Source: Acidobacteriota bacterium | GTDB taxonomy: Bacteria > Acidobacteriota > Thermoanaerobaculia > Multivoradales > UBA5704 | Direction of reading: 5' to 3' | Assembly: GCA_040005235.1 (NCBI GenBank) | Contig: JBDTZG010000082.1 | Span: 1 to 19,394, forward strand | Length of the DNA stretch: 19,394 nt | Shown here: piece after piece, positions 1,748 through 17,858 of the stretch | Layout of the letters: each line of letters begins with the position of its first letter | Numbering within the stretch: the first letter of the stretch is position 1 | Program-made: the position numbers and the translations under genes | The notes under the pieces: model-generated | The model's input: only the letters and a program-made list of their open reading frames with translations | The model's database searches: none | What the model was told of the DNA's origin: nothing

Positions 1748-1876
1748 GGTGGGGCGAGTTTAGCGCGGCGCCGCCGATCAGGGAGTCGTCGCGGCATGGC
1801 GGACGGCTCGATTCCGTTGAGCCAGGGCACTTTATAGGTTGAAGCCGTCTGGACCTGAAGGTCCAAGGAGACCCCG

Positions 1877-2044
1877 ATGAAAAAGCGTTCGAGCAAGGTG
1901 CGCCTGTCGAAGGAAACCGTCACCATCCTTCTCTCCATCGACCCCTTGGACCGGGTTCATGGCGGCAGCGAGCCTACCGGCCCCCGCGCTCAAAGTTTCT
2001 GCGTCGAGTGCTACTGGCCCTCGATCAATTATCCCTGCGACTAA
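1877..2044 (+). CDS. Putative RiPP (class I lanthipeptide-like) precursor peptide, 55 aa
   Basis: MKKRSSKVRLSKETVTILLSIDPLDRVHGG|SEPTGPRAQSFCVECYWPSINYPCD*; AAGGAG at 1865-1870; basic N-terminus, VxLxKETV leader motif, V-x-GG site, Cys/Ser/Thr core. Confidence 0.8.
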   Translation: MKKRSSKVRLSKETVTILLSIDPLDRVHGGSEPTGPRAQSFCVECYWPSINYPCD

Positions 2045-2077
2045 ACAGTCGTCCGACGCTCGATTTCAAGGAGCCGC

Positions 2078-2095
2078 CGGGGATGAATCTCCCCG
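2078..2095. terminator. Short hairpin between convergent genes
   Basis: CGGGGA-tgaatc-TCCCCG; no adjacent U-tract. A second hairpin, GCCTCC-aga-GGAGGC, lies at 2167-2181. Confidence 0.3.
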
Positions 2096-2240
2096 AGAAG
2101 GTGTTGCGTTTTGTTTAGACGGTGCGGGACCTACGTAGACAGTAGCGGGCCCGTACGATAAATCGCGCCTCCAGAGGAGGCTTCGCCTGTTGGGTGATCG
2201 TCGTCCTCATGACGAATCAAGGTCACAAGAGAATGCGCCC

Positions 2241-2438
2241 TTACCCGCCGCGAATCGCCTGGCCCTTGGCGAGCCCCTGAAGGCCCCGCATCTCCTCAAC
2301 GGTCTCTTCCAGCCACTGCAATCGCTCCGCAGGGCTCATGCGGAGCCCCATCTCCAGGTGGTGACGCCGGGCGCCGGCAAAGTCCCAGCCGGACAGATCC
2401 GGTTTAGGAGGCTGCAAGAGTTTCTTTGGATCGTCCAT
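2241..2438 (-). CDS. Small helical partner of the nucleotidyltransferase (65 aa), possible TA component
   Basis: MSPAERLQWLEE motif; GGAGG RBS; starts 11 nt after the NTase stop. Confidence 0.75.
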   Translation of the reverse strand: MDDPKKLLQPPKPDLSGWDFAGARRHHLEMGLRMSPAERLQWLEETVEEMRGLQGLAKGQAIRGG

Positions 2439-2449
2439 GAGCCTCCAGA

Positions 2450-2944
2450 TCAGCTCTCGCGCCCAAGCGATTTAAACGCCTCGATGTCAAGCAGGTCTTG
2501 CTCCCTCGCAGCACTTCTCTTCAGCGCCAACAGGTCGGAGAGAGCAACGACCCGCGCCGCCGTCGTGGGTAACTCTACCCGCACCGCCCGGGCGAACACG
2601 ACATCAAAGTCGAAGGGTTCTTCGACAAAGAGGTCAACCGCGAAGCCCTGGAGTTTGGGATTCCAAAGGGAAAAGACCGTCATGTTCTTCTCCCGAACCC
2701 AAGATCGGCGGCGTTCTGGATCGGCAAACAGGGCCAAAGGGACGGGAGCTTGAGGCTCGAAGCCCAGCCCGGCCAGGGCCGCCAGCGCCCGTTCAAGGTT
2801 CTCCCGCTCCAGGTGGATCACCAAATCGAGGTCCAGCGTCGTCCGGAGGTGGCCGTGGAGCACGACGGCAACACCGCCGACGATCAGGTAGCGGACCTGT
2901 GCCTCCTCCAAGGCTTTGATGACGAACTCGACGCGACCTTGCAT
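2450..2944 (-). CDS. Pol-beta-superfamily nucleotidyltransferase (DUF6036/AbiEii-like), 164 aa
   Basis: YLIVGGVAVVLHG, RTTLDLDL (DxD), VDLF, LLALKRSAAREQDLLDI. Start placed at ATG 2944; the extension to 3280 does not look protein-like. Confidence 0.88.
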   Translation of the reverse strand: MQGRVEFVIKALEEAQVRYLIVGGVAVVLHGHLRTTLDLDLVIHLERENLERALAALAGLGFEPQAPVPLALFADPERRRSWVREKNMTVFSLWNPKLQGFAVDLFVEEPFDFDVVFARAVRVELPTTAARVVALSDLLALKRSAAREQDLLDIEAFKSLGRES

Positions 2945-2967
2945 GCGCGCCAAGTGTACGTCGTCCG

Positions 2968-3287
2968 ATCCTCGCTCGCTTCGAGGAATCCGATCGGGAA
3001 GAGCCCGCGAGCGTCTGGATTGCGGAGAAAGGCTCCAATCTTCGAGCGGGCTCTGCGCCGGATCTCGACTGGGCCTCCAGCGCCGACCGTGCGCAGTGGC
3101 CGCCCCATACCATCCGCTACACGGTCGTTCGGTCGGGCGCCAACCGGCTGATACTCGAAGTCCATATCCGACTTGACTCGGTCTCCTCCCCGAAAGCCGC
3201 GGCGGCTCAGTGGAGTGCTGGACGTTGGCCAAGAAAGGCGGGCGCTGGAGCGTGACGAAGCGGGAGACGACGATGAACATCGATTGA
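2968..3287 (+). pseudogene. Possible 5'-truncated, frameshifted gene remnant
   Basis: One frame gives HTIRYTVVRSGANRLILEVHIRL; after a shift near 3175 another gives GGSVECWTLAKKGGRWSVTKRETTMNID*. No start codon found. Confidence 0.3.
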
Positions 3288-3309
3288 ACCCGCGCTCAAT
3301 CTCGGGTTC
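3286..3309. terminator. Hairpin downstream of the protease gene cluster
   Basis: GAACCCG-cgctcaatct-CGGGTTC, 7-bp stem. Confidence 0.3.
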
Positions 3310-3411
3310 CGAGCGGGCAGGTCTGCCTCAGCACCTTTCTTCATCTACAGCGGGTCCCCGAGCTTTCGTCGTCGCCAGGGCAGAACCGGATCGGCGGACA
3401 GGCATCTTCGG

Positions 3412-4311
3412 TCAGATCGCTTTGATCCTCAACGTGTTGCTAGAATTCTGGCTTAAACGGCAGAGAACCCAATCCATCGGATTGACGGCGAAATACTCTT
3501 GATCTTCATCAAAGCCCATCCAAATTCCCACCGCATCGCCATTCTTGGTCACCAGCGAGCCAGAATCACCAGGCTTGGCAAATACCCTCCCATCCTTGTT
3601 GGTGACGATAATCTGGTGTTCAAACTTTACACCCTTCAAACCTCCCGCATCAATCAAAACGCAGGCCTCGGTAACAAATACCTCACCTACTGTTCTCGAA
3701 GTCTTCTGGCCGCACTTCTCGACGATATCTCGATACGCCACGCTAACGAGTCTTCCGGTGAGCCTGTCGGCCGTGTTACAAAAAGAGCCTGAGCGGTCAT
3801 CCGTTGTATTCAACAATCTTATCAGTGCTGCATCCACTACCTTCGACGACACCTGTGGATCGGAAAGGTCACCAATCGCCGCCACACTGCCTATCACCTT
3901 GCTTCCTGACTTCGCTTCGCTCCTGACTCCTCCATTTGAGTGCTGTGAACTGACTAAAAATCGCTCGTCGCGCTCGTTGAGCAGGAAGCAGCCGACCGAA
4001 CCGCCACCGACTCTGGAGCCTCTCCGAAGGCCAACGGCTCCAGAATCAACAGGAAGCTCACTCGACTCTTCAGAAATAAAATCGTGAGCGTAGTCGGCAA
4101 TGAAGTTGCCTTTTCGGGTCGCAACCCGGCTGCTCAAGTGTGCACCGAGATTCTGCCGCCAAGTCTCGACTGCCGGAGTCAATGCAGACACAAAGACCAC
4201 CAGACTGTCTTCGCCCTGATATCCCACTCCTGTGAACTCAATAGCTTCCTCACACTCTTGCGACAGGCAGTAGCAAATTCTTTTTTGGAGCCGATCAATC
4301 TCTGCATTCAT
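3412..4311 (-). CDS. Nal1-like trypsin-fold (S1) serine protease, 299 aa
   Basis: GSVGCFL...FLVSSQH (His), VDAALIRL (Asp), VEKCGQKTSRTVGEV, FAKPGDSGSLV (Ser); N-terminal TGVGY...LVVFVS region; no signal peptide; AGGAG RBS overlapping the upstream stop. Confidence 0.88.
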   Translation of the reverse strand: MNAEIDRLQKRICYCLSQECEEAIEFTGVGYQGEDSLVVFVSALTPAVETWRQNLGAHLSSRVATRKGNFIADYAHDFISEESSELPVDSGAVGLRRGSRVGGGSVGCFLLNERDERFLVSSQHSNGGVRSEAKSGSKVIGSVAAIGDLSDPQVSSKVVDAALIRLLNTTDDRSGSFCNTADRLTGRLVSVAYRDIVEKCGQKTSRTVGEVFVTEACVLIDAGGLKGVKFEHQIIVTNKDGRVFAKPGDSGSLVTKNGDAVGIWMGFDEDQEYFAVNPMDWVLCRLSQNSSNTLRIKAI

Positions 4312-4320
4312 GCCTCGCTC

Positions 4321-5373
4321 CTAACGAAAACCGCGCATAACCTTCGGCGAGCAGGGACGAAGTGAGTCACCCCCCGTCCCCTCGTTCACCAACGGTACCG
4401 GACCAGATCTTTTCCCATGGGAGAGATAGTAGAAGCCCTCGAAATCTGGGTCCGGAAGGTCATTAGAAAAAGGGCCTTCGTTTAATCCAAGCGCAGTTTC
4501 CGGCTCCTCATTTCCTATCTCAACCGTTATGACCTTGTTCTTCTCATTCTTAAAAGTTATGGAGCCGTCAGTCTCATTTTCTCCTCGAAGCGCTATGCCG
4601 ATCGTGATCGTATCCCCTTCAAATGGAACCTCCAGAACGGTCTTATTTCCAACAGCGAGCCCCCAAACACGCTCGCTGAATACGAGCTGCCGCCTTAACC
4701 TCGACCAATTTGACAATCCAAACTGCCAAGAATCGATTTTTAGATCTTTACCGTTAAACAAGGTCTCGTGCAAGCCTCCGAGCGAGAGAGTTCCACGTTC
4801 GAAGTACACAGTTGAGACTACGGGCTTCTCCTTTAAATTATAGTCAGTGCGGGGATCGAATACTGGTTGGACATCGTGGTGCCTGCTTTCCTTAGAGAGC
4901 CTTTCGGCGTGAGGTATCCACCAGAGTGAACTCTTCTCATCCGCGGTCTGAGGAATCTTCATGTTCTTAGGGTACACTTTGTTTTTGCAGACCAACTTCT
5001 CCGATGCTCCATAAGGAACCTTGACATGCTCGTGCTTGAGCAAGAGCATCCCCATCTGTGTGCTGGATCGAAAGAACCAATGCTCCACTTCACGGTTGTA
5101 TACACTATCGAAATCTTCGTACCGAAATGTGAGATGAGGAATGTGCGTTGCTCTAAAAGCGGGTGGCACACAAATTCCCTTTCCCCATGAAGCAAAGTCC
5201 GGACGCAAAAGGTTCGGCATAAGAATCGCCATTTGCGTAGGCGACCCTTCCTTCCAGTGATCTCCGTATGGTACAAACAACGGCTTGTCTGGAACGAAGG
5301 CGATGGCACCGGTAAATTCGATGCGGAGCACCGATTTGTCAGCAGCCGCTGGATCCTGCGCGATTGTTCCCAC
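4321..5373 (-). CDS. Hypothetical beta-rich protein, CHAT-associated (350 aa)
   Basis: Long ORF in a low-GC tract; AGGAGG RBS before GTG; packed 13 nt after the CHAT stop; LRIEFTGAIAFVP, HIPHL, DFEGFYYL and a terminal RPCSP. Confidence 0.88.
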   Translation of the reverse strand: MGTIAQDPAAADKSVLRIEFTGAIAFVPDKPLFVPYGDHWKEGSPTQMAILMPNLLRPDFASWGKGICVPPAFRATHIPHLTFRYEDFDSVYNREVEHWFFRSSTQMGMLLLKHEHVKVPYGASEKLVCKNKVYPKNMKIPQTADEKSSLWWIPHAERLSKESRHHDVQPVFDPRTDYNLKEKPVVSTVYFERGTLSLGGLHETLFNGKDLKIDSWQFGLSNWSRLRRQLVFSERVWGLAVGNKTVLEVPFEGDTITIGIALRGENETDGSITFKNEKNKVITVEIGNEEPETALGLNEGPFSNDLPDPDFEGFYYLSHGKRSGPVPLVNEGTGGDSLRPCSPKVMRGFR

Positions 5374-5386
5374 TGGTCGGACCTCC

Positions 5387-8300
5387 TTATGAAGTGGCCC
5401 CCAGGGATAATAGGGCCGCTGAACAGTAAGGTGCGTTCATTCGTGTTCCGTCTTTCCACCGGCAGGACCGGCGAAGAACAGTGCGCATTGCATTTGCAAC
5501 ATCCGCGTCCTTTTCTAATTCGCGATGCGTCTCCAGCGTTAGCGCAAGCGTCGAACGATCGCCAATTTGCCACAAACTCCCTACCACCGCCGGCACCCCC
5601 GCAGCTAAGAAAGGTCGCGCCAAGCCTACCACCCCTTCTCCTTCCGGATTCTCTCCCGCGCTCTCGCAAGCCGCGAGGATGGCGAGCCGGGTCCTGGGCA
5701 GATCGAGCGCCGCGAAATCTCTTAGGGTGCGCGCTCCGCGGGCTCCCGGATCGGCGAAGAGGAGGAAAGAGCGGAACGGATCGACGGGATCGGGCGCGGC
5801 GTGCATCCCGAGATGGATCACGTCGGCATCGAGGGCCGCCTTGCGGAAGGCGTCCCAGGTGGCCCTCTTGTCGGTAAGGACCGTCGCGTTCGAACCGTAG
5901 AGCGCTCCGATCTCGGCGGCTTCTTTTCGGGCCGCGGGCAGGCGCGTGAATCGCGGCCACTCCTTGGAATCGAATGCCGGATCGCCGACGACCAGGATTC
6001 GTATCGGGCCTTTGGAGTCTAGCTCTTGGGATCGCGCCAGGGCGCGGAGGTAGAAGCTCGCACTCGGGTCCACCAACACCGCCCGGTCCTCGACCACGTA
6101 ACGGTCGCGCTCCCGGTCCCTTAGTCCGGACCAGGGAACCTGGCTTAAGGGACCGTCGGGTACGACCACCAGCGTCCGCTCCGGGCCGAGCCGGCTGTAG
6201 TAAGGCCGGAGCAGGAGGTCGAACAGGCGGGCCGAGCTTTCCTTCCAGGCCTCGTCAGTCAAGGTTCCTTTAGTCGGATCGAGGCTTTCGACGAGGCGCG
6301 TGAGCCCTTCCCGCGATGCCTTCGTCGAGAAGCTAGCCACCCCTTCGGGAGCGACCCACCAGGAGAGGATTCGATCGTCGAAGACGGCGAACTCGACCAG
6401 GACCGTGTCGGCCGGCAGGGCGGCGCGAAGCGCTCCAAGAGCCGGCGGCTGGTACAGACTTCCGGCGTCAAGCTGGCCGGCGCGGGACGGAGGGTGGGGA
6501 GCGAGCAGCTCGCGGGCCGTCTCCGCGTAGGCGAAAGCCCGCCAGGGCCGGCGCGCCTCGACCGCCTGGAAGCGCACCATCTCGGAAAACGCGCGGCGAG
6601 TCTCGCGGCCGAAGGTGTAGCGATCTTCGTCTCCAGCTCCGTCGAGCCAACCCTGTCCACCTCGTTCGGCGTAGGCGACCAGGGCCCCCAGATCCGCCTC
6701 AGCTCCTGCGAGATTCCCGGCCGCGACGTGCGCCCGGGAGCGGACCGCCCGCGTCGCGCCGTCGAGCACCCCTTGCCCCGTCTTCGCATAGTGGTCCACC
6801 GCGCGATCGAGTTTCGCTACGGCTTCCGTCGGCGCCCGCTCGATGTCGAGAGCCCCCTCGATCCGAAACAGATCGGCTTGCGTCCGGGCTTGGTCACCGG
6901 CGTCCGTGATCGAGGTCACCTTCCGCCGGACCTGGGCGAGATCCGCTCCGGCTTTGGTCGAATCGCCGAGCGCCGCATGAAGCGAAGCGCGCAAAAGCAG
7001 CGACTCATTGACCGCGTTCGGATCGCCCTGTTCGGCGGCGGCCCGTTGCATTTCCTCTTGGAACGCAAGCCCGCCGCGGAACCGTCCTTTCGCCTGGGCA
7101 AAGTAGGCGAGCTGGCCCCAGATCGTCCGGCGCCGGTAAGGATCGCTCACTTGGGGCGCCACCTCTACCGCCCTCAGGTAGGTGCGCCAGGCTTCCCTTC
7201 CGCGGCCGAGCTTTTCGAGCGCCTGAGCGAGCAGGCTGTCGGCCGTGGCGCATCGATCGATCTCGCCGAGCCGGGCGTAGAGATCGCGGCTGAGGCGATA
7301 CTCCGCGGCCTGATCGAACGGTCGGCCGTCGCGGCCTGCGATCACTGCACGAATCCAAGCGGCAAGGGCCAAGAGTCCCGGTTCATCGCGGCTCTTGAGA
7401 AGCGCCTCGACCGCGTCGATGCGATCGGCTGCCTCCTTCGGCCGGCCGGCGTTGTTCTCGGCAGCGGCCCGGTAAAGCTCGACTTCGAACGCTTGCGGCA
7501 GACCCGCGGCGGCAAGGTCTTTCTGCGCGAGCGCGAACATCGAAATCGCCCGCTCATTGTCGAAGGCTCGATAGACAGGAAAGGCATCGGCGAACTCGCT
7601 TAAGCCCCGGGCCGCTCTCTCCCGCCGGGCTACATCGGCCCCACGGACGATCGCCACGGCGTCGGCCGCGAAAGAATCGCCTCGCCCCGCAAGGGGCGCG
7701 GCGAGCGCCGATGCCGCGGCCAGATGACGATCCGCTTCGCCCGGGCGCCCGGCCATGATCGCTCGGCCCCAGGCCCAGAGAAGGTCGCGCCCCGCAAGCT
7801 CACGGGCACGCTGCGGATCGACCCTCGCCAGTTTCGCCGCCGCCTGGGCATCGCCCCGGAGCGCCGCGGCTTCGAGCCCCTTCTCCAGCGGTGAGGGGCC
7901 GGTCTTCTGCGCGAGCGCCGTTCGCCGTTCCGCCGCTTCAGCCGCCCACTCCCGATCCGGATCGAGCGCTTCGACCTCCTCCCAGGCGACCGCGGCTTGG
8001 CCGTCGAGATGGAGCGCTTCGAGGGCGAGCGCTCGGTTGAACCGCGCTTCCGGCGAGGGCGAGAGAGCGAGCGACCGCGAGGCGGCTTCCAGCGCGTCGA
8101 GCTCGTCCAATCCGCCTTCCGAGCCTCCCGGGCATTTTCGGAACAGGGGGGAGGCGGGATTGCGCTCCGCTTCCACCGCCACCAGATGCGCCGCGGCGAG
8201 GTCGTTCCACAAGCGGGGATCCGCCGCGTTGGAGGTCACGGCTCGTTCAAGGCGGCGAACCGCTCCTCGCGGACAGCCGGCCAAGAGCGTCTGGGCGGCC

Positions 8301-8614
8301 CTTACCAACACCAGATCCGGCCCTTCGCCCCTTGCCTCCTTCGACCCCCACTCCTGTGTGAGGATTTTCCCCAGCGTTCTACTGGGAGCCCGTCCGAGAG
8401 CACCGTACGGCTCGCCACTGAGCCGAGGCACCAGGAAACGAGAGTCTCCAAAGGCTTGGAGGACCTCCTTGTGCCGACGGGTCGCCGGACTCTCCGGCGA
8501 GCCGAAAGCACGCAAGATCGGCCAGAGACCGACCGCCGCGACGGCCACGGCCAAGCCGCCCAGTAAGGCGCGCACAGCGAGGAAATGCGGGGAAGAGCGC
8601 TCCCACGGCTTCAC
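5387..8614 (-). CDS. Membrane-anchored TPR-CHAT (caspase-like, clan CD) protease, about 1075 aa
   Basis: N-terminal hydrophobic helix, PRLSG motif, TPR-like helices (LWNDLAAAHL, EARFNRALALE), CHAT motifs LVVVPDGPLSQVPW, LPAARKEA, IHLGMHA (His) and LAACES (Cys), FLAAGVPAVVGSLW. Start moved to GTG 8614, which follows GAGGAG. Confidence 0.93.
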   Translation of the reverse strand: MKPWERSSPHFLAVRALLGGLAVAVAAVGLWPILRAFGSPESPATRRHKEVLQAFGDSRFLVPRLSGEPYGALGRAPSRTLGKILTQEWGSKEARGEGPDLVLVRAAQTLLAGCPRGAVRRLERAVTSNAADPRLWNDLAAAHLVAVEAERNPASPLFRKCPGGSEGGLDELDALEAASRSLALSPSPEARFNRALALEALHLDGQAAVAWEEVEALDPDREWAAEAAERRTALAQKTGPSPLEKGLEAAALRGDAQAAAKLARVDPQRARELAGRDLLWAWGRAIMAGRPGEADRHLAAASALAAPLAGRGDSFAADAVAIVRGADVARRERAARGLSEFADAFPVYRAFDNERAISMFALAQKDLAAAGLPQAFEVELYRAAAENNAGRPKEAADRIDAVEALLKSRDEPGLLALAAWIRAVIAGRDGRPFDQAAEYRLSRDLYARLGEIDRCATADSLLAQALEKLGRGREAWRTYLRAVEVAPQVSDPYRRRTIWGQLAYFAQAKGRFRGGLAFQEEMQRAAAEQGDPNAVNESLLLRASLHAALGDSTKAGADLAQVRRKVTSITDAGDQARTQADLFRIEGALDIERAPTEAVAKLDRAVDHYAKTGQGVLDGATRAVRSRAHVAAGNLAGAEADLGALVAYAERGGQGWLDGAGDEDRYTFGRETRRAFSEMVRFQAVEARRPWRAFAYAETARELLAPHPPSRAGQLDAGSLYQPPALGALRAALPADTVLVEFAVFDDRILSWWVAPEGVASFSTKASREGLTRLVESLDPTKGTLTDEAWKESSARLFDLLLRPYYSRLGPERTLVVVPDGPLSQVPWSGLRDRERDRYVVEDRAVLVDPSASFYLRALARSQELDSKGPIRILVVGDPAFDSKEWPRFTRLPAARKEAAEIGALYGSNATVLTDKRATWDAFRKAALDADVIHLGMHAAPDPVDPFRSFLLFADPGARGARTLRDFAALDLPRTRLAILAACESAGENPEGEGVVGLARPFLAAGVPAVVGSLWQIGDRSTLALTLETHRELEKDADVANAMRTVLRRSCRWKDGTRMNAPYCSAALLSLGATS

Positions 8615-8655
8615 GACCAACTCTCCTCGGCGACAGTCTGATGACGATGGCCAGG

Positions 8656-8664
8656 AGGCTAGCA
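8656..8664 (-). promoter_or_regulatory. Putative extended -10 (TGcTAGCCT) for the CHAT gene cluster
   Basis: TGn-TAnnnT about 40 nt upstream of the GTG start. Confidence 0.4.
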
Positions 8665-8756
8665 CGGAGGGGCGGGTAGGGGCGCCTAGGGCAGGCATTC
8701 CTCCAGGGAGACGGACGCAGCTCTCGAATTCCGCCAGAGTCCCAGCCTACCCACCT

Positions 8757-11700
8757 TCACTCCCCCGCCACCCGAACCACCTCCCCCGCCGAATACGCCA
8801 CGAACTCCGGCGCGTAGAGGCTCTGCAACGTCGCCGGGCCGACGCGGAAGGTTCCGGCGACGTTGGCTCTCAGGCGGTATTTGAGGGTGTAAGTGCCGGA
8901 AGGTAGGTATTCGAAGAAGAAGTCCGTGGCGGCATCGCGGGTTTCTTCATAGCGGCCCAGGCCCAGGTCGTAGGCGTAGCCGGAGTGGACGACTCCGGGC
9001 TCGAAGCCCGCGGCTCTTGGGTCTCGGAGGTGGACGTATTCGGCCGGGGCTCGGCTGCTGATGGTGAGTTGCACTTCGATCTCGTCGCCGACTTGGAGAG
9101 TTGCTCCTGCTGCGAGCGGCTGGAGGGTGGTTTCGGCTCCCCCGCGGAGGCGCCGGAAGTAGTGGCGTTCGACGTGAAACAGGTCGCCGCTCGCTTGGGT
9201 CGGTAACTGGTCGGTCGCGAAGTGCCAGGTGGCTGAAGCGAACATGAGGCCTGGGGTTTCTTGGGTGACGGTGACCTGGCCGCCTGTTGATGAAGCGGCG
9301 ATCGCGGCATCTACGTCTTTGCCGGGTATGACGATCTGGTTGTGCTTTCCGGTGAAGCGATCGGGCTCGAAGACGAAGTGCGTCGTGCCTTGAGGGACAC
9401 CGGCCACCGCGACGGTTGCGGCCTCGCGGGCTCCTAGCTGATTCTCTTTCTCAAGATACGAGGCGAGCGAGTAAAGCACTTCGGCGGTGGCCCGGGTGCT
9501 CTGCCAGTGGCCGAGTTTCTTTTGCAGGAAGATCCATTGCACCAGGCCGGGAAGGCGCGGATCCTTGGGATTGAGCTCCAGCAGCGTGCGCATGGCGAAG
9601 GCGTGGCTTTCGACCGTGTCCTGGTACCAGAGCCAGGCGCTCGGTTCCGGTTGCCAGAACGTTCCCTCGTCGCGCGTGGTGCGGGCCGAATCCATCACGC
9701 TGTCGAACACCAGCTTGGCGTCGGCCTCTCGTCCCATGCGATGAAGAGTGAGAGCGAGCAGCCCCTTCAAATAGGGCGAATGCTCCCGCCAGCGGGCAAA
9801 GCTGTAGTTGGCGATCTTCGTCCGATCGGCGGGGTCGAGCGCTCCGGCCATCCAACTCGGATCGGGATAGGCGGAGGCGACGTAGTTGAGCAGGGTGAGC
9901 AGCTCGACACAGCAGGCGTCTTTCTTCTTGGCGATCTCGACCGACCAATCGTTCTTGTAACGTTGCCCGAGGTATCCCCAGCCTTTCTGGACCAGATCCC
10001 GCGGCACCTCGACGCCGAATTCGGTCGCTCGGGCGAAGCCGGCGAGGAGATAGATCGTCATGTAGTCCGACGCCGGGCCGCCCGGCCACCAGGGGAAAGC
10101 GCCGCTTTCGAGCTGAGCGTCTTTGAGCTTGGCGAGCGAGGAGTTTCTTTGGGCTTCGGCGATTTTCGGATCGAGCACGCGGATCAGAGCTTGCTCCCCT
10201 CCGCCCGCGTCGCCTTCACGCCCCCCTTTGGACACCGCCAGCCACGGAGTTTCTTCGAGCAGCATTTTGCGGTTCGGATCGTCGGCGCTCCACGCCTCGG
10301 TCGCGGTTTCGCGCGTCGCCATCTGGGCGGCCATGTCGGCCACTGCCGGGTAGCGATCGAACAGACTGCGCACGATGCCGGTCGAGAGGAACCGGTTGAG
10401 GGTCTGCTCGGTGCATTCGTACGGATAATCGATCAGGTAGGGCAGGGCATCGAGCACGCCGTAGAACAGCTGGGCGTCGAGCGTCACCACCAACTGCTCG
10501 GAGACGCGGGTTGGATCGGCTACGCCGAGATCGGCGAATTCGAGCGTTCGGGTCTCGTTGCCGCGCAGCGCCGCCAAGCGTGATTGAGCGAGGTGCAGGC
10601 GGCTCGGCAGGATCGGCAGCGCGCGCAGCTCGCCGTCGGAAAGTGCGCCCTCGGGGCCGCTGGACGACCGCGCGGTGATGCGAAACTCGACCTCGCCCAC
10701 GGCCTTCGGCACGGCGAGCGGAAAGACCACCGTGGCGCCACCACCCGGCTCGACCGTGAACGGCAGAACAGCCGCCGTCGGCGCAAGGCCGAAGGCGGCG
10801 AGGCGATCTTCTTGCGTCGCCGCGTCCACCAGCTCCAGACGAACTTCGCCGGAAAGCGGGGTTTCTCCGGCCTCGCCCGCAAAATTGACCACGGCGCGGA
10901 TCTCCGCCTGGTCGCCCTCGCGGAGGAAACGCGGCAGATAGGGCCGGACCATCAGGCTCTTGGCGCTGCGGGTTTCCGCATGGACCGAGCCGACTCGGAA
11001 ATCGCGGGTGATCGCGTGGACCCAGACGCTCCACGAGGTGAGCGAGTCGGGCACGGTGAATTCGATCGCCGCCGAGCCGTCGGCGCCGGTGAGCAGATGC
11101 GGCTGCCAGAACGCCGTTTCGGCGAAGCTCGAACGCAGCGGGACCGCGGCGACGGGGGGTGGCGGAGGTGGAGGAGGGGCCGGCGTTGCCACCTCGATCT
11201 TGGGGATCTCGACCGGGGCGGCCGGAGCGGCGTCACCGGTCACCATCATCGATTCAGCCATCGCCTGCGGGGCGGCCGCGGAGCGAAACGCGAACCTCCC
11301 TCCCCCGCGCCACCCCGGCCCGCCGAGGGCGTAGGGTCCGAAACTCGGCAGTTCGTCCTCTCGGAATTCGACGCCATCCGGCAGGGCGACGAGATCGTCA
11401 TCGGTCAGGAATTCGCCACCGCGGACCCCCAGGCTCAACCGGGCGCCGACCGGCTCCGCGGTGCGACGAGGAAATAGCCGCAGCGGCGAGGGGGGATCGT
11501 ACGGAGCGAACGCGTCGAGCGAGCGGTCGTACATCGAGGCGAGCAGCTCGGCCGCCGCGACCGGGGCGCGGCTGTCGTCGTCCGGAGCGGATTTCGAACC
11601 GGCGGACTTCGGCTCGCGGACCACGACCTTCCACGACTCCTTGTCGCCGGGGCGAATCCGATCGCGGAAACTCGACAGCTCGACATCCAGCTCGCGATCG

Positions 11701-14700
11701 TCCCAAGGCACCTCGATCGTGAGCGACGATTCCAGGTTTTGAAAATCGCGAACGGCGAACAGCCGGACGTACAGCCCGCCGCGATCGGGTTTGCCTACGG
11801 GGAAGTCGACTCGGATCGGCCGGTCCCCCGCCACCAGGCGGCGCCTGTCGCGCAACCGGCCCGATTGATAGGTTTCGAGGATCAACTCTTGGCCGGGGAA
11901 GCCGGAATGGACCAAGAGCTGCGCAGTCTCCCCCACATGGACCGTGGTTTTCTCGATCGCGAGCAGAGCGGCGATCGGCAGAGGTGCGGGAGATGAAGCG
12001 CCCTTTTCCGAGCCGGCCGGATCGACCACGAGCCATTCGCCCTGCGCCTTGGCCTGGGCGCCGAAGTCGTCGGCCGTCTCGTACAGCAGCCGATAGGCCC
12101 CGGCATCGAGGGCGGGCAGCTCGATCGTCGCGCGCCCGTCTTCGCCGTGGCTCAATTCGCCGCGGGCGACTTCCGTTCCATCCGCCCAACCGCGGAGGGT
12201 CCGCTCGAATCCGCCGTAGGGTTCCCAGCGCGGTCGCAGGCGATCGCCCGGCGTGACGATCGGCTCGAAGGTTCCCGACGTCGGAGCGACCTGCGGCGAA
12301 GAGATCGGTTCTTCGCTCGGCAGCAACGGCCGTACCGGCCGAACCAGCGCGACAAGCCGCCACGAGCCCCGGCCGGCTCGCGGCGCGCCGTCGAGGTCTC
12401 GGCGCTGGACCGAGATCTCGTTCGGCTCGGTGGGAGGACCAGCTTCGAGGAACGCGCGGTCGGAGTGCAACGTCGCCTCGATCGCGACGAAACCGACGCG
12501 GACCGAGCGCTCCGCCTCGCGGGTCTCGCCCCCCTCGTCGGTCACCGCCGCGCTGATCCGGAAGCGGTAGCTCACGTCGCGCGCCAGCCGCTCGTCGGCC
12601 TCCGGGGTGAACGCAACGGCAAAGGTGCCGTCCGCCCCGATCTTCGCCTCCCCCGCCGCCACCCGCTCGCCGGTGCTCGCCGGAGGCCGCCAACCCCAAT
12701 AGCCCCACCAATCCGGATAGACCGGCTCGCGCGTCACCTGCCAGGTAGCCGCGCCGCCGGTCACCGGCAGGCCGAACAGGTAGCGCGCCGTGCCGGTGAG
12801 CTTGGCCGGGCGATTGAGGCGCAGCGGCGGCGTCTCCGCGGTCGGCGGATCGAACACGACCTCGAACGTCGGCCGCTTGTACTCCTCCACTTGGATCGAA
12901 GCCCCTCCGCCCCCCTTGGTGCCAAAAGAGACCGCAAGCGACCAGGCGCCGAGCGTGCGGCCGGCGGGGATCGCCAACTCGCCGGACGCCGTACCGTAGG
13001 CGTTGGTCGTGACCGTCGCGGAACCGGCCTCTTGCCCCACCGGATCGGTGAGCGTGATCTTCACCTCGGCTGCGGGAAGGAGGCGCGGCTCTTCGCCGCT
13101 CCGTCCGCGATAGGCGAGCACCTTCCAGAGCACCTTCTGCCCCGGCCGATAGACCGCTCGGTCGGTGAACACCAGACCTTGCGACGCTTCGGTTTGCAGC
13201 GTGTCGGGAACCATCCAGCCGAGGTCGGAGTAGGCCACCGACTCGTCTTTTCGCCCGATGAGGAAATACTCCCGCGTGATTCCGGGATTGTGCTCGGGAT
13301 CGGAGGTTTCTCCCGCTTTGGACTGCGCGAGCTCGGCGCCCGGCTCCGGAAAGCGGACGAAGCCATCGGCCCCGGTGATCAGGGTCGCGACCCGCACCGA
13401 CTCGTCCGCCGATTCCCCCCGGCGATAGAGGCGCACCTCCGCCCCGGCCATCGCCCCGCCGCTCGCCCCGTCGAGCGCGAGGACGGCCAGCTTGCCGTTT
13501 TCTACCCCGCGGTTGGCGAGCACCAGGTCGCCGACGACCAGCCGCACGTGGAGCAGGCGATTTCCCTTCGGTCGAAAATCCTCTCGCGCCGAGATCAGAA
13601 TCTCGTAGGCCCCCGGCCGGACGAGCGGCGGCGTCACATAGGTCATATGGCTGGAAAAGTCAGGTGTCGCCGGCAGGGTGGCGCTCCAAGCCGCGTCGGG
13701 AGTCCTGCCGAGCAGTTTCTCTGCCGGCTGGGCCTCTTCGGCGTCTTCCCCCAACGGCACCGCGCCGCCCTGTTCGAACCAGGCGGCGAGATCCAGCCGG
13801 TAGGCGTGGAGGTAGAGCGCGGGCAGGTTCTTGTGCCGCACCTGGATCGACCGCCTCTTCGGCCCGTCGCTCGCCATCGCTTCGACCGAGAAGTCTGGCG
13901 CCTCGATCTCGCGCACGATCCGCCGGCAGGCCGCTCCGCCGGGCGAGCCGGGATACGCCTTAGAACCTTCGAGCGCGATCTTCCGGGCATCGATCAATGC
14001 GTCCGGCCGCTCCTCTTGCCGCACCCTTTGGGCGAGCGCCGCCTGGCCCCAAGACCACCAGGAAACCGAGCGGTAGCCGCGCACCGGATCGGCAAGGCGC
14101 GTCGCGAGCTTGTCGGTCAAGAACGCGCGATCGACGGCGCCGTCCAATGAGCTGGAGAGATGGCGGGCCCGCTCCAGCCACGCCTCCAGCTCCGCGGCTT
14201 TCCGCCCGCCGCGCCGGTGCCAGGCTTCGAGATCGGCGAGCACCGCGACGAGCTTCGCAAGCGGATGGACCGCGGGGTCGTCCAGCTTGACGGCGGGCGG
14301 CGAGTCGGCCACCAGCGCCGCGCGATCGAGCCGCCAGGTGCCGTTCACTTCCGTAGGCGACCAGAGCGAGGTGTCGGCGAGCAGCTCGGCGAACAGATAG
14401 GAGATCGCGTCGCGCAGCGTGTCGCGCACCCCCGCCGGGTAGTCGTTCGCCTCAAGGAAATCCTTCCACGCCGTGACCGGCAGGGCGCCCAGCGCCTCCC
14501 GAGCGCCCCACGCCCTGGCGTAGGCGGCGATCGCCTCGGCGGCGATTTGGTCGCGCGTCCAGGCCGCGAGATCGACCTTCTCGGTGCCGGTCACCCGTTC
14601 GCGGTGGTTGATCTCCCAGGACTGGGCATCGAGATAGGTCACCAGCGCCGCGCCGTACGTGAGATCGAGCACCGCGCGCTCTTGTCTTCCCTTCGGCCAC

Positions 14701-15029
14701 TCCTGCTCGCGCAAGAAACGCACGGCGGTCTCGTAGCCGCCCAGGGCGATCTTCATCTTGACCGCCTTGATCAACGCGCGGGTCGCGAGCGGTTCGTTCC
14801 CCGCCTTCCGGGCCTTGGCGAGCAGGGCGATCGCCTGGTCGTATGCCGTCTGCACTTTCTGCTCCTTCTCGGCCAGGCGATCGATTTCAGCGAGCGCCGC
14901 GATTCCGGATGCGGTTCCCCCCGGTTTCGTCGCCGCGCGGGCGACCGCAGGAAAGACCGGCTGGCCGAGGAGGATCGAGAAACCGAGGACGAGACCGAGG
15001 CGGGAAAAGTTCAGTGGGCGCGCGATCAT
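8757..15029 (-). CDS. Bacterial alpha-2-macroglobulin family protein (2090 aa)
   Basis: Signal peptide; FTDRAVYRPGQ, VEEYKRPTFEV, ETAFWQPHL, PDSLTSW, LPRFLREGD; thioester motif YPYECTEQ (CTEQ 10404-10415); GAFPWWPG; WQSTRATA; C-terminal LYAPEF. Confidence 0.96.
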   Translation of the reverse strand: MIARPLNFSRLGLVLGFSILLGQPVFPAVARAATKPGGTASGIAALAEIDRLAEKEQKVQTAYDQAIALLAKARKAGNEPLATRALIKAVKMKIALGGYETAVRFLREQEWPKGRQERAVLDLTYGAALVTYLDAQSWEINHRERVTGTEKVDLAAWTRDQIAAEAIAAYARAWGAREALGALPVTAWKDFLEANDYPAGVRDTLRDAISYLFAELLADTSLWSPTEVNGTWRLDRAALVADSPPAVKLDDPAVHPLAKLVAVLADLEAWHRRGGRKAAELEAWLERARHLSSSLDGAVDRAFLTDKLATRLADPVRGYRSVSWWSWGQAALAQRVRQEERPDALIDARKIALEGSKAYPGSPGGAACRRIVREIEAPDFSVEAMASDGPKRRSIQVRHKNLPALYLHAYRLDLAAWFEQGGAVPLGEDAEEAQPAEKLLGRTPDAAWSATLPATPDFSSHMTYVTPPLVRPGAYEILISAREDFRPKGNRLLHVRLVVGDLVLANRGVENGKLAVLALDGASGGAMAGAEVRLYRRGESADESVRVATLITGADGFVRFPEPGAELAQSKAGETSDPEHNPGITREYFLIGRKDESVAYSDLGWMVPDTLQTEASQGLVFTDRAVYRPGQKVLWKVLAYRGRSGEEPRLLPAAEVKITLTDPVGQEAGSATVTTNAYGTASGELAIPAGRTLGAWSLAVSFGTKGGGGASIQVEEYKRPTFEVVFDPPTAETPPLRLNRPAKLTGTARYLFGLPVTGGAATWQVTREPVYPDWWGYWGWRPPASTGERVAAGEAKIGADGTFAVAFTPEADERLARDVSYRFRISAAVTDEGGETREAERSVRVGFVAIEATLHSDRAFLEAGPPTEPNEISVQRRDLDGAPRAGRGSWRLVALVRPVRPLLPSEEPISSPQVAPTSGTFEPIVTPGDRLRPRWEPYGGFERTLRGWADGTEVARGELSHGEDGRATIELPALDAGAYRLLYETADDFGAQAKAQGEWLVVDPAGSEKGASSPAPLPIAALLAIEKTTVHVGETAQLLVHSGFPGQELILETYQSGRLRDRRRLVAGDRPIRVDFPVGKPDRGGLYVRLFAVRDFQNLESSLTIEVPWDDRELDVELSSFRDRIRPGDKESWKVVVREPKSAGSKSAPDDDSRAPVAAAELLASMYDRSLDAFAPYDPPSPLRLFPRRTAEPVGARLSLGVRGGEFLTDDDLVALPDGVEFREDELPSFGPYALGGPGWRGGGRFAFRSAAAPQAMAESMMVTGDAAPAAPVEIPKIEVATPAPPPPPPPPVAAVPLRSSFAETAFWQPHLLTGADGSAAIEFTVPDSLTSWSVWVHAITRDFRVGSVHAETRSAKSLMVRPYLPRFLREGDQAEIRAVVNFAGEAGETPLSGEVRLELVDAATQEDRLAAFGLAPTAAVLPFTVEPGGGATVVFPLAVPKAVGEVEFRITARSSSGPEGALSDGELRALPILPSRLHLAQSRLAALRGNETRTLEFADLGVADPTRVSEQLVVTLDAQLFYGVLDALPYLIDYPYECTEQTLNRFLSTGIVRSLFDRYPAVADMAAQMATRETATEAWSADDPNRKMLLEETPWLAVSKGGREGDAGGGEQALIRVLDPKIAEAQRNSSLAKLKDAQLESGAFPWWPGGPASDYMTIYLLAGFARATEFGVEVPRDLVQKGWGYLGQRYKNDWSVEIAKKKDACCVELLTLLNYVASAYPDPSWMAGALDPADRTKIANYSFARWREHSPYLKGLLALTLHRMGREADAKLVFDSVMDSARTTRDEGTFWQPEPSAWLWYQDTVESHAFAMRTLLELNPKDPRLPGLVQWIFLQKKLGHWQSTRATAEVLYSLASYLEKENQLGAREAATVAVAGVPQGTTHFVFEPDRFTGKHNQIVIPGKDVDAAIAASSTGGQVTVTQETPGLMFASATWHFATDQLPTQASGDLFHVERHYFRRLRGGAETTLQPLAAGATLQVGDEIEVQLTISSRAPAEYVHLRDPRAAGFEPGVVHSGYAYDLGLGRYEETRDAATDFFFEYLPSGTYTLKYRLRANVAGTFRVGPATLQSLYAPEFVAYSAGEVVRVAGE

Positions 15030-16487: not shown

Positions 16488-17858
16488 CTAGGGATTGTCG
16501 TGCGGATTTTCTTTTTCCTGCGCCGCCATCGCTTTGCGCAGGCTGAGCGGGCGCATGTCGACCCAGACCTCCTTGATGTAGGCGAGGCACTCCTTCTGGG
16601 TTCCGGTCTTGTCGACGCCCTTCCAGCCGTCGGGAATCTTCTCGCCCTCCGGCCAGATGGAGTACTGCTCTTCGCCGTTGATGACGACTTGAAAGCGCGG
16701 CGCCGACTCTGAAGTGTAGGTCCCGGCAGGCCCTAAGGGAGCGAAGTCGTAACCCGAGATCATGGTTCCCGGGGGCACGTCTTTGATCGAGAGAGCGACC
16801 TGGCCCAGGTGTGAAATGTGAACCATGGCTGAGACGGTGTCGAAATTCGTGACCTTCCCTTCGCCACCCAGCATCGGGGCATGCTGCCAACTGTAGACCT
16901 GTCCCGCCTGCGGGCGAAAACCCAGGTCGCGCAAGGCGAGCAGCGTACTGACGTGAAAGACAGTCGGAAGGTGGATCGCGATCCCTTCGAGCGACTCGGC
17001 CTCAGTGTCGACAAACTCTTCGTACCTCGCCGAGCCCGTATCGAGCCAGTGGATGTGGCCGTCGGGCGTTTGAAGGAAAAGGTCCCCGAAGACGGTGACA
17101 CGGAAGAGTTTCGCGTCCGGCCCGACGAGCCATCGCCAATCCGCGAGCGCCGCCTCCCGCTGCTCGGCCGGGAGCTCGACAAACAGCTCGGCCCAGGAAG
17201 CGCGGAGAGCCTCCGGACCGCCCTTTTCTGCAACGAACCGCGCCCTGGCTTCTCGGCTCACGTTGGCGAGAACGAGATTGGTTTCATACAACAGGGGCTG
17301 GGCGCCAAAGAGATTGGGATCGAATCCGGACTGCCAGGGAAACAAGGCTTCTTTATCGGGCCAGACCACTTGCAGGACCGGGAAGTCGTCCGTCTGGTAA
17401 AAAGCCATCGCCGTGCCCACGAACTCTACGTACCAAGAGCTGTTGACCTTGCGCAAAGCGCCGGAGAATTTGCCGAAGAGACCATCGTAGGTTTTTCCGG
17501 CTGCGAAGGTCTCGCCGGCCGCGATGCGCTTCGCCATCGCGGCCACACGGCCGGACACCTCCAGCGGATCTCCCGGTGCGAAAAGCAGAAGCTCAGGATG
17601 GTGGTAGCTCTTCCATAACCCGATGGTAAAGACAAACCCCGGTGATGAACCCTCGCCACGCACCGCCACCATGTGCCAGCCAACGCGTTTGACGTCACGT
17701 TTGGCTCGCTCGACCGCCTCATTGCCCAGGGACTCGATTCCGCTCCGTTTCGGATCGGCCGAAGCCTTACTTTCGGAGCCTGCCCGGCCTCGAAGAGCAA
17801 AGGCTGCCACGATCCCCGCGATCACCACGAGGACGACAAGGATGGATATTCGGGTCAT
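16488..17858 (-). CDS. Fusion protein: TM/signal + DUF4262 + Tdi1/DUF1851-like + MbtH-like domain (456 aa)
   Basis: aa 55-190 GWHMVAV..FVFTIGL..HPEL..QVVWPD..FPW; aa 222-367 [30 protein letters not shown]; aa 388-444 [34 protein letters not shown]; GGAG RBS. Confidence 0.88.

Follow-up and report, generated by a model that had tools for sequence, protein, structure and literature searches.

What do the TPR-CHAT proteases of bacteria act on, and which genes travel with them? To our knowledge, these caspase-like enzymes are widespread in bacteria, and few of their substrates are known. For the periplasmic DdvA type, both the signal and the target are open questions according to the accessible part of PMC11506125. 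The question is raised again by a 19,394-nt stretch of DNA from an Acidobacteriota bacterium of the class Thermoanaerobaculia (GCA_040005235.1, contig JBDTZG010000082.1), here called the window, whose minus strand holds three genes at 3412..8614: a TPR-CHAT protease (CHAT), a middle protein (MID) and a serine protease resembling rice NARROW LEAF 1 (NAL1). We found that this module is real and conserved, and apparently undescribed: a polymorphic cassette combines a DdvA-like caspase with a partner that fits no known family or fold and with an interchangeable protease. A literature search found no publication on it, subscription journals and supplements being largely beyond its reach. Below, L with a number labels a locus from a related genome, and G000 is the window's own genome. 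The genes are laid out as follows.

5387..8614, minus strand: CHAT gene, a DdvA-like TPR-CHAT caspase-like protease without the zinc anti-sigma domain, 1075 residues from GTG 8614
5801..5803, minus strand: CHAT catalytic His, invariant in 69 aligned relatives (H507 of the CHAT alignment)
5666..5668, minus strand: CHAT catalytic Cys, at least 90% conserved among the 69 aligned relatives (C552 of the CHAT alignment)
5382..5388, minus strand: ribosome-binding site of MID, AAGGAGG, overlapping the CHAT stop codon, read from the sequence
4321..5373, minus strand: MID gene, 350 residues, undescribed family, predicted almost all-beta, without signal peptide
4318..4322, minus strand: ribosome-binding site of the serine protease, AGGAG, overlapping the MID stop codon, read from the sequence
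3412..4311, minus strand: Nal1-like trypsin-fold serine protease, 299 residues, triad His124/Asp160/Ser250, without signal peptide
3940-3942, minus strand: serine protease His, codon checked
3832-3834, minus strand: serine protease Asp, codon checked
3562-3564, minus strand: serine protease Ser, codon checked, in a GDSG motif

The preliminary description had read three co-oriented genes with ribosome-binding sites overlapping the upstream stops and with intact catalytic residues. The open reading frames (ORFs) and the sequence bear this out, with gaps of 13 nt between CHAT and MID and 9 nt between MID and the serine protease, and with all five catalytic codons in place. The CHAT frame spans 5387-8698 and reaches an ATG at 8698, and its likely start is GTG 8614, with GAGGAG 8 nt upstream. 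The name TPR-CHAT also held: Pfam CHAT (PF12770) matches at E 6.7e-48 (164 bits against a cut-off of 24), the His/Cys dyad is present, and TPR matches weakly (E 0.034). The same gene order was found again in relatives and in another class of the phylum, which places it beyond chance. At the assembly level, one X1 metagenome contig covers the stretch and one X2 contig covers the step in guanine-cytosine (GC) content at 5556, with zero differences, X1 and X2 possibly being the DNA's own source. Promoter and terminator scans gave nothing above chance on the coding strand, and a search for sequencing runs containing this DNA listed none from RNA.

Linkage was counted in 78 regions –mostly the best-scoring of 98 matches– which, together with three own-genome copies, hold 83 long CHAT frames. 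Profile A1 came from an exhaustive protein search and is independent of these loci, though a few of its rows are the same proteins; it placed a MID match directly downstream of CHAT in 56 of 83 cases. Profile A2, built partly from these loci and hence circular for this count, did so in 78 of 83, and three of the five loci that it missed have MID nearby in another arrangement. In the reverse direction, CHAT lies directly upstream of 62 of 70 MID matches (some loci counted twice), and of 6 of the 7 matches from other classes of the phylum. As a control, the window's own genome has 13 CHAT ORFs (E<1e-7), and MID follows only the three of this subfamily. Linkage of middle-gene homologues to CHAT, on which the preliminary description had staked its proposal, was thus found.

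The distribution was searched within the class and the phylum: the MID family occurs in 48 of 201 genomes of the class, including the unpublished G481 (47 of 200 without it), with 1-6 matches per genome, and in 13 of 401 of the phylum. Full-length CHAT relatives are present in 30 of 41 genomes searched, own genome counted. MID accompanies CHAT alone, with no third protease, in the own-genome unit on C123 and in L066, L071 and L073, and a protease alone in L167 and L191/L215 (Nal1-like) and in L170 (C14); no CHAT domain lies within 11 kb of the MID-Nal1-like pairs of L167 and L215. What stays constant in the module is MID, found with CHAT alone, with a protease alone, or with both. The window's genome has two paralogous units, at G000 C7:50120-56225 (CHAT, MID and a secreted 609-aa protein) and at G000 C123:37294-41528 (CHAT and MID alone), and the MID genes of both are low in GC. 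A weak, truncated-looking MID homologue (E 6e-7; G000 C82:42074-42757) has no CHAT nearby and is followed by a small unrelated gene. Tandem MID copies stand behind a single CHAT in L056 (three), L069, L147 and L108. An apparent CHAT-MID fusion in L070 was discounted, an internal ribosome-binding site and ATG suggesting a lost stop.

The exhaustive protein search with MID returned 41 relatives besides itself at E<=0.001, with 23-37% identity, and adding the related-genome loci brought the set to 151 distinct homologues. Besides the residues listed below, Gly22 (148), Gly194 (146), Asn288 (132) and Pro327 (145) are conserved among them.

5143..5145, minus strand: MID His77, nearly invariant, 142 of 151 homologues
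4354..4389, minus strand: variable Gly-containing loop ahead of the Cys strand, residues 329-340, where cleavage is predicted
4351..4353, minus strand: MID Cys341, most conserved polar residue, 10 residues from the C-terminus, 146 of 151 homologues, 4 more being alignment gaps

This Cys is kept in all 105 members of the larger alignment A2. It lies at most 25 residues from the protein end in 169 of 178 MIDs, and a Gly stands 3-9 residues from it in 144 of 178. The preliminary description had recognised no family for the middle gene, and MID matches no Pfam, NCBIfam or PADLOC family. Pfam on the 105 members of A2 hit six families in a single member each (best E 0.017), and a PDB sequence search with profile A1 gave one row at E 0.85. 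Word-index searches returned MID alone in one case and MID plus one in another, and one weak match for the serine protease. MID apparently founds an undescribed family.

The structure prediction that had been proposed for MID gave a confident AlphaFold2 model on 39 sequences, almost all-beta, with a predicted local distance difference test (pLDDT) of 89.4 and a predicted TM-score of 0.90. Residues 331-340 form its one weak loop (pLDDT 56), between blocks of 88 and 92. Foldseek with this model returned zero hits at E<=0.001 against PDB and viral structures. VIA-align returned 5 of 48,161 chains at Z>=2, the best at Z 2.2 with a root-mean-square deviation of 4.4 over 73 residues. The ESM Atlas, whose models were poor, gave no usable feature match for two MIDs. 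That the fold searches yielded no usable match suggests, short of proof, that the predicted fold is new. Residue couplings from 184 sequences were too shallow: the top pairs lie among invariant sites and are artefacts, and the coupling F26-P343 (z 4.8) is at most a hint of packing between the tail and the first strands. Co-folding of CHAT residues 460-1103 with MID scored 0.01 against a mark of 0.32, a "no answer" that we used neither way.

The third gene was called Nal1-like in the preliminary description, and a profile of 7 third-gene proteases agrees: rice NAL1 takes the nine best rows in PDB, the best at E 3.7e-6 over 71 profile positions, in the Ser-motif region only. The NAL1 N-terminal domain has no Pfam match in the window protease, one relative matches NAL1_N below the cut-off, and the structure model of the window protease was unusable (pLDDT 38.7). 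Next genes were scanned in two sets. The first kept 56 of 72 automatic picks, 16 mis-picks being dropped by eye; the second added 33, namely 32 of 65 picks (repeats, mis-picks and all but one of a group of ~130-aa lipoproteins dropped) plus one own-genome gene. With peptidase calls at E<=0.01, many of them below Pfam cut-offs, 29 of the 56 had a match: 12 S8, 8 trypsin, 7 papain-like, 1 M64 and 1 M23, the last probably an unrelated neighbour. The further set had 23 of 33: 3 C14, 1 C11, 5 trypsin, 1 NAL1_N, 5 M36, 5 papain-like, 2 S8 and 1 M12. By these profile matches, MID is mostly followed by a protease gene, and the proteases belong to many unrelated clans, covering S1, S8, C14, C11, C39/C70/C1, M36 and M12/M64. 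Behind the 17 closest MID matches, a Nal1-like gene is directly downstream in 14 and divergent in 1, another gene follows in 1, and 1 ends at a contig edge. Next-gene class follows the MID tree (90 labelled leaves, four with soft labels: L044 and L089 by motif, L096 by size, L194 with a divergent Nal1-like gene), taking 28 changes versus a shuffled mean of 60 and minimum of 52 in 500 shuffles.

Some MIDs are fused in frame to a protease just past the Cys, to C11 in L154 (E 1.3e-25) and to C14 in L179 (E 6.8e-7), with weaker cases in L150 (by motif) and L085 (trypsin, with a stop inside MID). Going by these fusions and the CHAT-less pairs, MID is tied as tightly to its third protease as to CHAT, a tie that the preliminary description had overlooked along with the N-terminal segment of CHAT and the swapping of the cassette between genomes. 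Several third genes bear signal peptides; the window serine protease has none. A subfamily made of CHAT, MID, a ~130-aa lipoprotein of no Pfam family and a secreted caspase-like gene occurs in L114, L115, L119-L122, L185 and related loci; the signal-bearing caspase-like gene comes after the lipoprotein in L115 and L185, and further off in L114 and L186 (by motif).

CHAT is predicted to be exported, with its active site outside the cytoplasm, because it has an N-terminal anchor or export segment as DdvA does.

8513..8569, minus strand: N-terminal hydrophobic segment, predicted membrane anchor or signal, residues 16-34, Kyte-Doolittle 19-mer 2.18

These calls come from a hydropathy heuristic, not from SignalP. 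Such a segment occurs in 71 of 78 full-length CHAT relatives, and a lipobox-like Cys in 29 of the CHAT relatives versus 49 of 339 control proteins. Co-export by twin-arginine translocation (hitch-hiking) was rejected: a twin Arg occurs in 20 of 71 family CHATs versus 105 of 339 control proteins. The MIDs of four loci (L071, L073, L106 and L153) are lipoproteins; the window MID has no signal.

DdvA of Myxococcus xanthus is a periplasmic, resting TPR-CHAT protein in the account available from PMC11506125. Like the DdvA-DdvS system, as far as the accessible parts of PMC11506125 and PMC6061681 describe it, the window CHAT has a single membrane segment followed by a TPR-CHAT of ~900-1000 residues with the His/Cys dyad, and related loci hold forms with zinc motif, transmembrane segment and TPR-CHAT beside extracytoplasmic function (ECF) sigma genes. 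Unlike DdvA, the window CHAT lacks both a zinc anti-sigma domain and a neighbouring sigma gene –the upstream gene is an alpha-2-macroglobulin– and after it come MID and a second protease, which those parts do not describe for DdvA. The likeness rests on layout; the sequence search gave no DdvA row. The zinc anti-sigma motif HxxxCxxC was found neither in the window CHAT nor in any of 84 CHAT-first relatives, the window has no Pfam zf-HC2 match, and no sigma gene was matched on the window contig. At least 15 CHAT-first loci are flanked by ECF sigma genes, the flanks covered being short. DdvA-like anti-sigmas are reported only in Myxococcota and one Comamonas in the available portion of PMC11506125. 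Full DdvA-like proteins (zinc motif, membrane segment and TPR-CHAT) stand in the class at L150, L153, L155, L157-L159, L161, L165, L177, L179, L180 and L183, outside that reported range.

Part of the module appears to be exchanged as a block.

3288..5555, minus strand: exchanged low-GC cassette, made up of the final 56 codons of CHAT together with MID and the Nal1-like protease, delimited by blastn breaks

Against L031, the window keeps 89.7% identity over 5556-14914 and 87% over 1787-3287 in blastn, with no match between. Similarity to L031, L032 and L034 breaks each time at 5556 –CHAT codon 1047, just past a conserved Ser-Leu-Trp motif– and resumes at 3287 (L031) or 3295 (L032). Identity to these three alleles is 17-29% in the last 56 CHAT residues, 28-29% in MID and 25-29% in the protease; among five alleles, CHAT identity is 0.17-0.29 in the tail versus 0.61-0.91 in the core. 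GC content drops from ~0.68 to ~0.50 over the CHAT 3' end, MID and the protease (genome 0.66), and at third codon positions it ranges over 0.66-0.86 in the body of CHAT, falls to 0.52 in the tail, and lies at 0.44-0.66 in MID and the protease. Cassette alleles are replaced at this one site, recombination and long local divergence both being possible origins. The CHAT tail is exchanged along with the cassette, which suggests a matched set. No terminal repeats were found at the cassette borders when mobile-element ends were considered, and no further cassette alleles were found in metagenomes. The apparent allele turnover and the 1-6 matches per genome fit a conflict system.

In polymorphic toxin cassettes, such as contact-dependent inhibition (CDI) and Rhs, the 5' body of the gene is conserved, a fixed breakpoint follows a conserved motif, and the low-GC 3' end is replaced along with the genes downstream of it; the window cassette is alike in this. 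Unlike in CDI and Rhs, what is swapped as the tail belongs to a protease fold (56 residues) and not to a toxin domain, and neither a secretion stalk nor an immunity gene is recognisable in the window.

Taken together, we read the module as a swappable three-gene cassette in which the CHAT predicted to be exported and the signal-less, cytoplasmic Nal1-like protease are likely dedicated activators of MID, in a presumed defence or danger response. Our tentative choice, given somewhat less than an even chance, is that MID is a latent substrate, cut in the loop before Cys341, and gasdermin-like in logic only. This reading is the simplest because MID is the sole constant, sits with either protease, and has partners that share only the ability to cut. 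In the envelope, TPR-CHAT would remain inactive as long as it senses neither damage nor a foreign protein, as proposed for DdvA. MID would be a substrate of the proteases rather than their inhibitor, since any protease can cut an exposed loop and a single fold is unlikely to block S1, S8, C14, C11, papain-like, M36 and metzincin proteases alike. Loss of the Cys strand would unlock MID, with His77, Asn288 and Cys341 as a latch or reactive site, and in fused forms the same cut would also free the protease. An exported CHAT and a signal-less MID would meet only upon inner-membrane breach or lysis, lipoprotein MIDs excepted. Cell death or alarm signalling is our working guess for the output of activated MID.

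Bacterial gasdermins are cleaved within a loop of ~12 residues that precedes an inhibitory C-terminal peptide, and their genes lie beside those of C14 and CHAT proteases, according to the accessible part of bioRxiv 10.1101/2021.06.07.447441. The MID model, with a weak loop and then an ordered C-terminal strand, matches this layout. Like gasdermin operons, the module sets a beta-rich protein beside varied proteases, with a flexible loop before a short C-terminal peptide and one conserved Cys. Unlike them, MID has no gasdermin among the fold matches listed (best Z 2.2), its only conserved Cys is residue 341 of 350 whereas gasdermins have a conserved N-terminal palmitoylated Cys3, CHAT is predicted exported, and pore formation is not indicated.

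Two CRISPR-linked systems are also close in design. SAVED-CHAT/PCaspase of the Haliangium type III-B CRISPR likewise co-encodes CHAT with a second protease, in the available text of bioRxiv 10.1101/2023.06.23.546230. Unlike that pair, the window has no SAVED domain (Pfam), CRISPR or cyclic-nucleotide input, its second protease is interchangeable, and an unrelated partner lies between. Craspase (Csx29/Csx30, type III-E CRISPR) also places a TPR-CHAT beside a candidate substrate, but here the NCBIfam Csx29 model scored 16.9 bits against a cut-off of 300 and no Cas7-11 was found in the window. Craspase is cytoplasmic, unlike the CHAT predicted to be exported here. The module probably works like protease-gated conflict modules, yet belongs to none of the DdvA, gasdermin, Craspase and SAVED-CHAT families.

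Several observations weigh against MID as a latent substrate. The predicted compartments of CHAT and MID differ for most members. MID has no hydrophobic segment (maximum 19-residue Kyte-Doolittle value 0.97), and neither gasdermin nor another known effector fold is among its listed fold matches. PADLOC assigned no family to the three genes and pointed to no clear defence island within the window. The zf-HC2 motif occurs in 12 of the 31 CHATs listed from MID-first loci, so the CHAT-MID link could have begun as a transcriptional one. In six other close pairs, CHAT tail identity is 0.45-0.79, though MID diverges faster than CHAT, which makes the fixed breakpoint a trait of the window's clade, the one place where tail and cassette were seen to be exchanged together. 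Over 69 pairs, MID identity correlates with the CHAT tail (rho 0.27) no better than with the core (0.33). Finally, since kin share labels, the fit of next-gene class to the MID tree shows co-inheritance and not co-evolution.

The strongest competitor, which we nevertheless consider unlikely, is a linear cascade in which MID restrains the third protease as a latch or inhibitor until CHAT cuts MID and so frees that protease as a killer. A two-protease precedent exists in SAVED-CHAT activating PCaspase (the accessible part of bioRxiv 10.1101/2023.06.23.546230). The fusions place MID at the position of a prodomain, MID-Nal1-like pairs persist without CHAT, and a Nal1-like gene is directly downstream in 14 of the 17 closest matches. 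Yet one fold would need to restrain at least seven unrelated protease groups, CHAT-MID units without a third protease exist, and the predicted compartments differ. The preliminary description had proposed a cascade of sensor protease, substrate and second protease: the linkage speaks for it and a second protease after MID proved a family trait, while its linear order fits poorly with the differing compartments.

A reversed flow appears less probable still. In that account, MID would be processed by the cytoplasmic protease and released as an allele-specific danger ligand, which binds the envelope TPR-CHAT of its own cell or of neighbouring kin and switches it on; in sigma-linked versions a sigma factor would then be set free. 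Spaetzle and Toll provide the model for this logic. It would resolve the compartment problem, DdvA-type anti-sigma CHATs and sigma genes do occur at related loci, and CHAT tail and MID are swapped together in the window's clade. The DdvA signal is also proposed to be a protein (PMC11506125, accessible part). Against this, identity between the window and L031 is 78-98% per 50 residues in the TPR region –the expected ligand surface– against 28% in MID, and the window's lack of an anti-sigma domain and sigma gene leaves the output undefined.

We give a similarly low probability to a purely transcriptional link, with CHAT as a sensor of the DdvA type that has decayed in this case into a sigma-less version, and with MID and the protease as operon cargo that CHAT never touches. 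The zf-HC2 motif in 12 of 31 CHATs, the ECF sigma matches at 15 CHAT-first loci and the MID-protease pairs living without CHAT point that way, as does the proposal that DdvA cuts itself and not a neighbour (PMC11506125, in the part available). However, none of the 84 CHAT-first CHATs has the zinc motif, yet linkage and dyad are kept; the CHAT tail is swapped along with the cassette; and lipoprotein MIDs share the predicted compartment of CHAT. Least probable of all is that MID is an enzyme (a thiol hydrolase, transferase or self-processing centre of His77, Asn288 and Cys341) that works alongside secreted proteases to scavenge protein or remodel the envelope and plays no part in defence: its conserved polar residues are His, Asn and Cys, several third genes bear signal peptides, and host DNA occurs in soil and root metagenome runs, possibly its source, but housekeeping enzymes are not expected to be swapped for 28%-identical alleles amid 90% identical flanks, and closeness of His77 and Cys341 is not readable from the model.

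Regarding the neighbourhood, the alpha-2-macroglobulin-family gene (a protease trap by family; window 8757-15029, minus strand) lies 58 nt upstream of the CHAT frame, and is also upstream in L031 and L032 and not in L033 and L034 (2 of the 4 closest alleles). Downstream of the cassette, a nucleotidyltransferase gene (DUF6036, weak AbiEii match; window 2450-2980, minus strand) is common to L031 and L032. A low-complexity repeat stretch at 508-1380 has a 71-77% similar copy in L031. At 16488-17858 (minus strand), a single ORF is an odd fusion of an N-terminal hydrophobic segment, DUF4262, the C-terminal domain of the type VI secretion system immunity protein Tdi1 and an MbtH-like domain.

Returning to MID as a latent substrate, a bolder extension, to which we lend little probability, would make it a protease-activated executioner or alarm protein of new fold and the cassette a membrane-breach detector, with the trigger outside and the substrate inside, meeting upon attack by phage or predator or upon lysis; allele swaps starting at a fixed breakpoint within the caspase gene would then keep trigger, substrate and amplifying protease matched and strain-specific. 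The locus offers a candidate partner for CHAT: a small protein conserved across the class, soluble by prediction, whose confident model has no fold match. Its naturally occurring alleles, matched and mismatched, allow specificity to be tested directly. If a cut turns MID on as it does a gasdermin, MID would be a second, unrelated fold using such logic; if MID acts instead as a ligand, it would give DdvA-like sensors their first known trigger.

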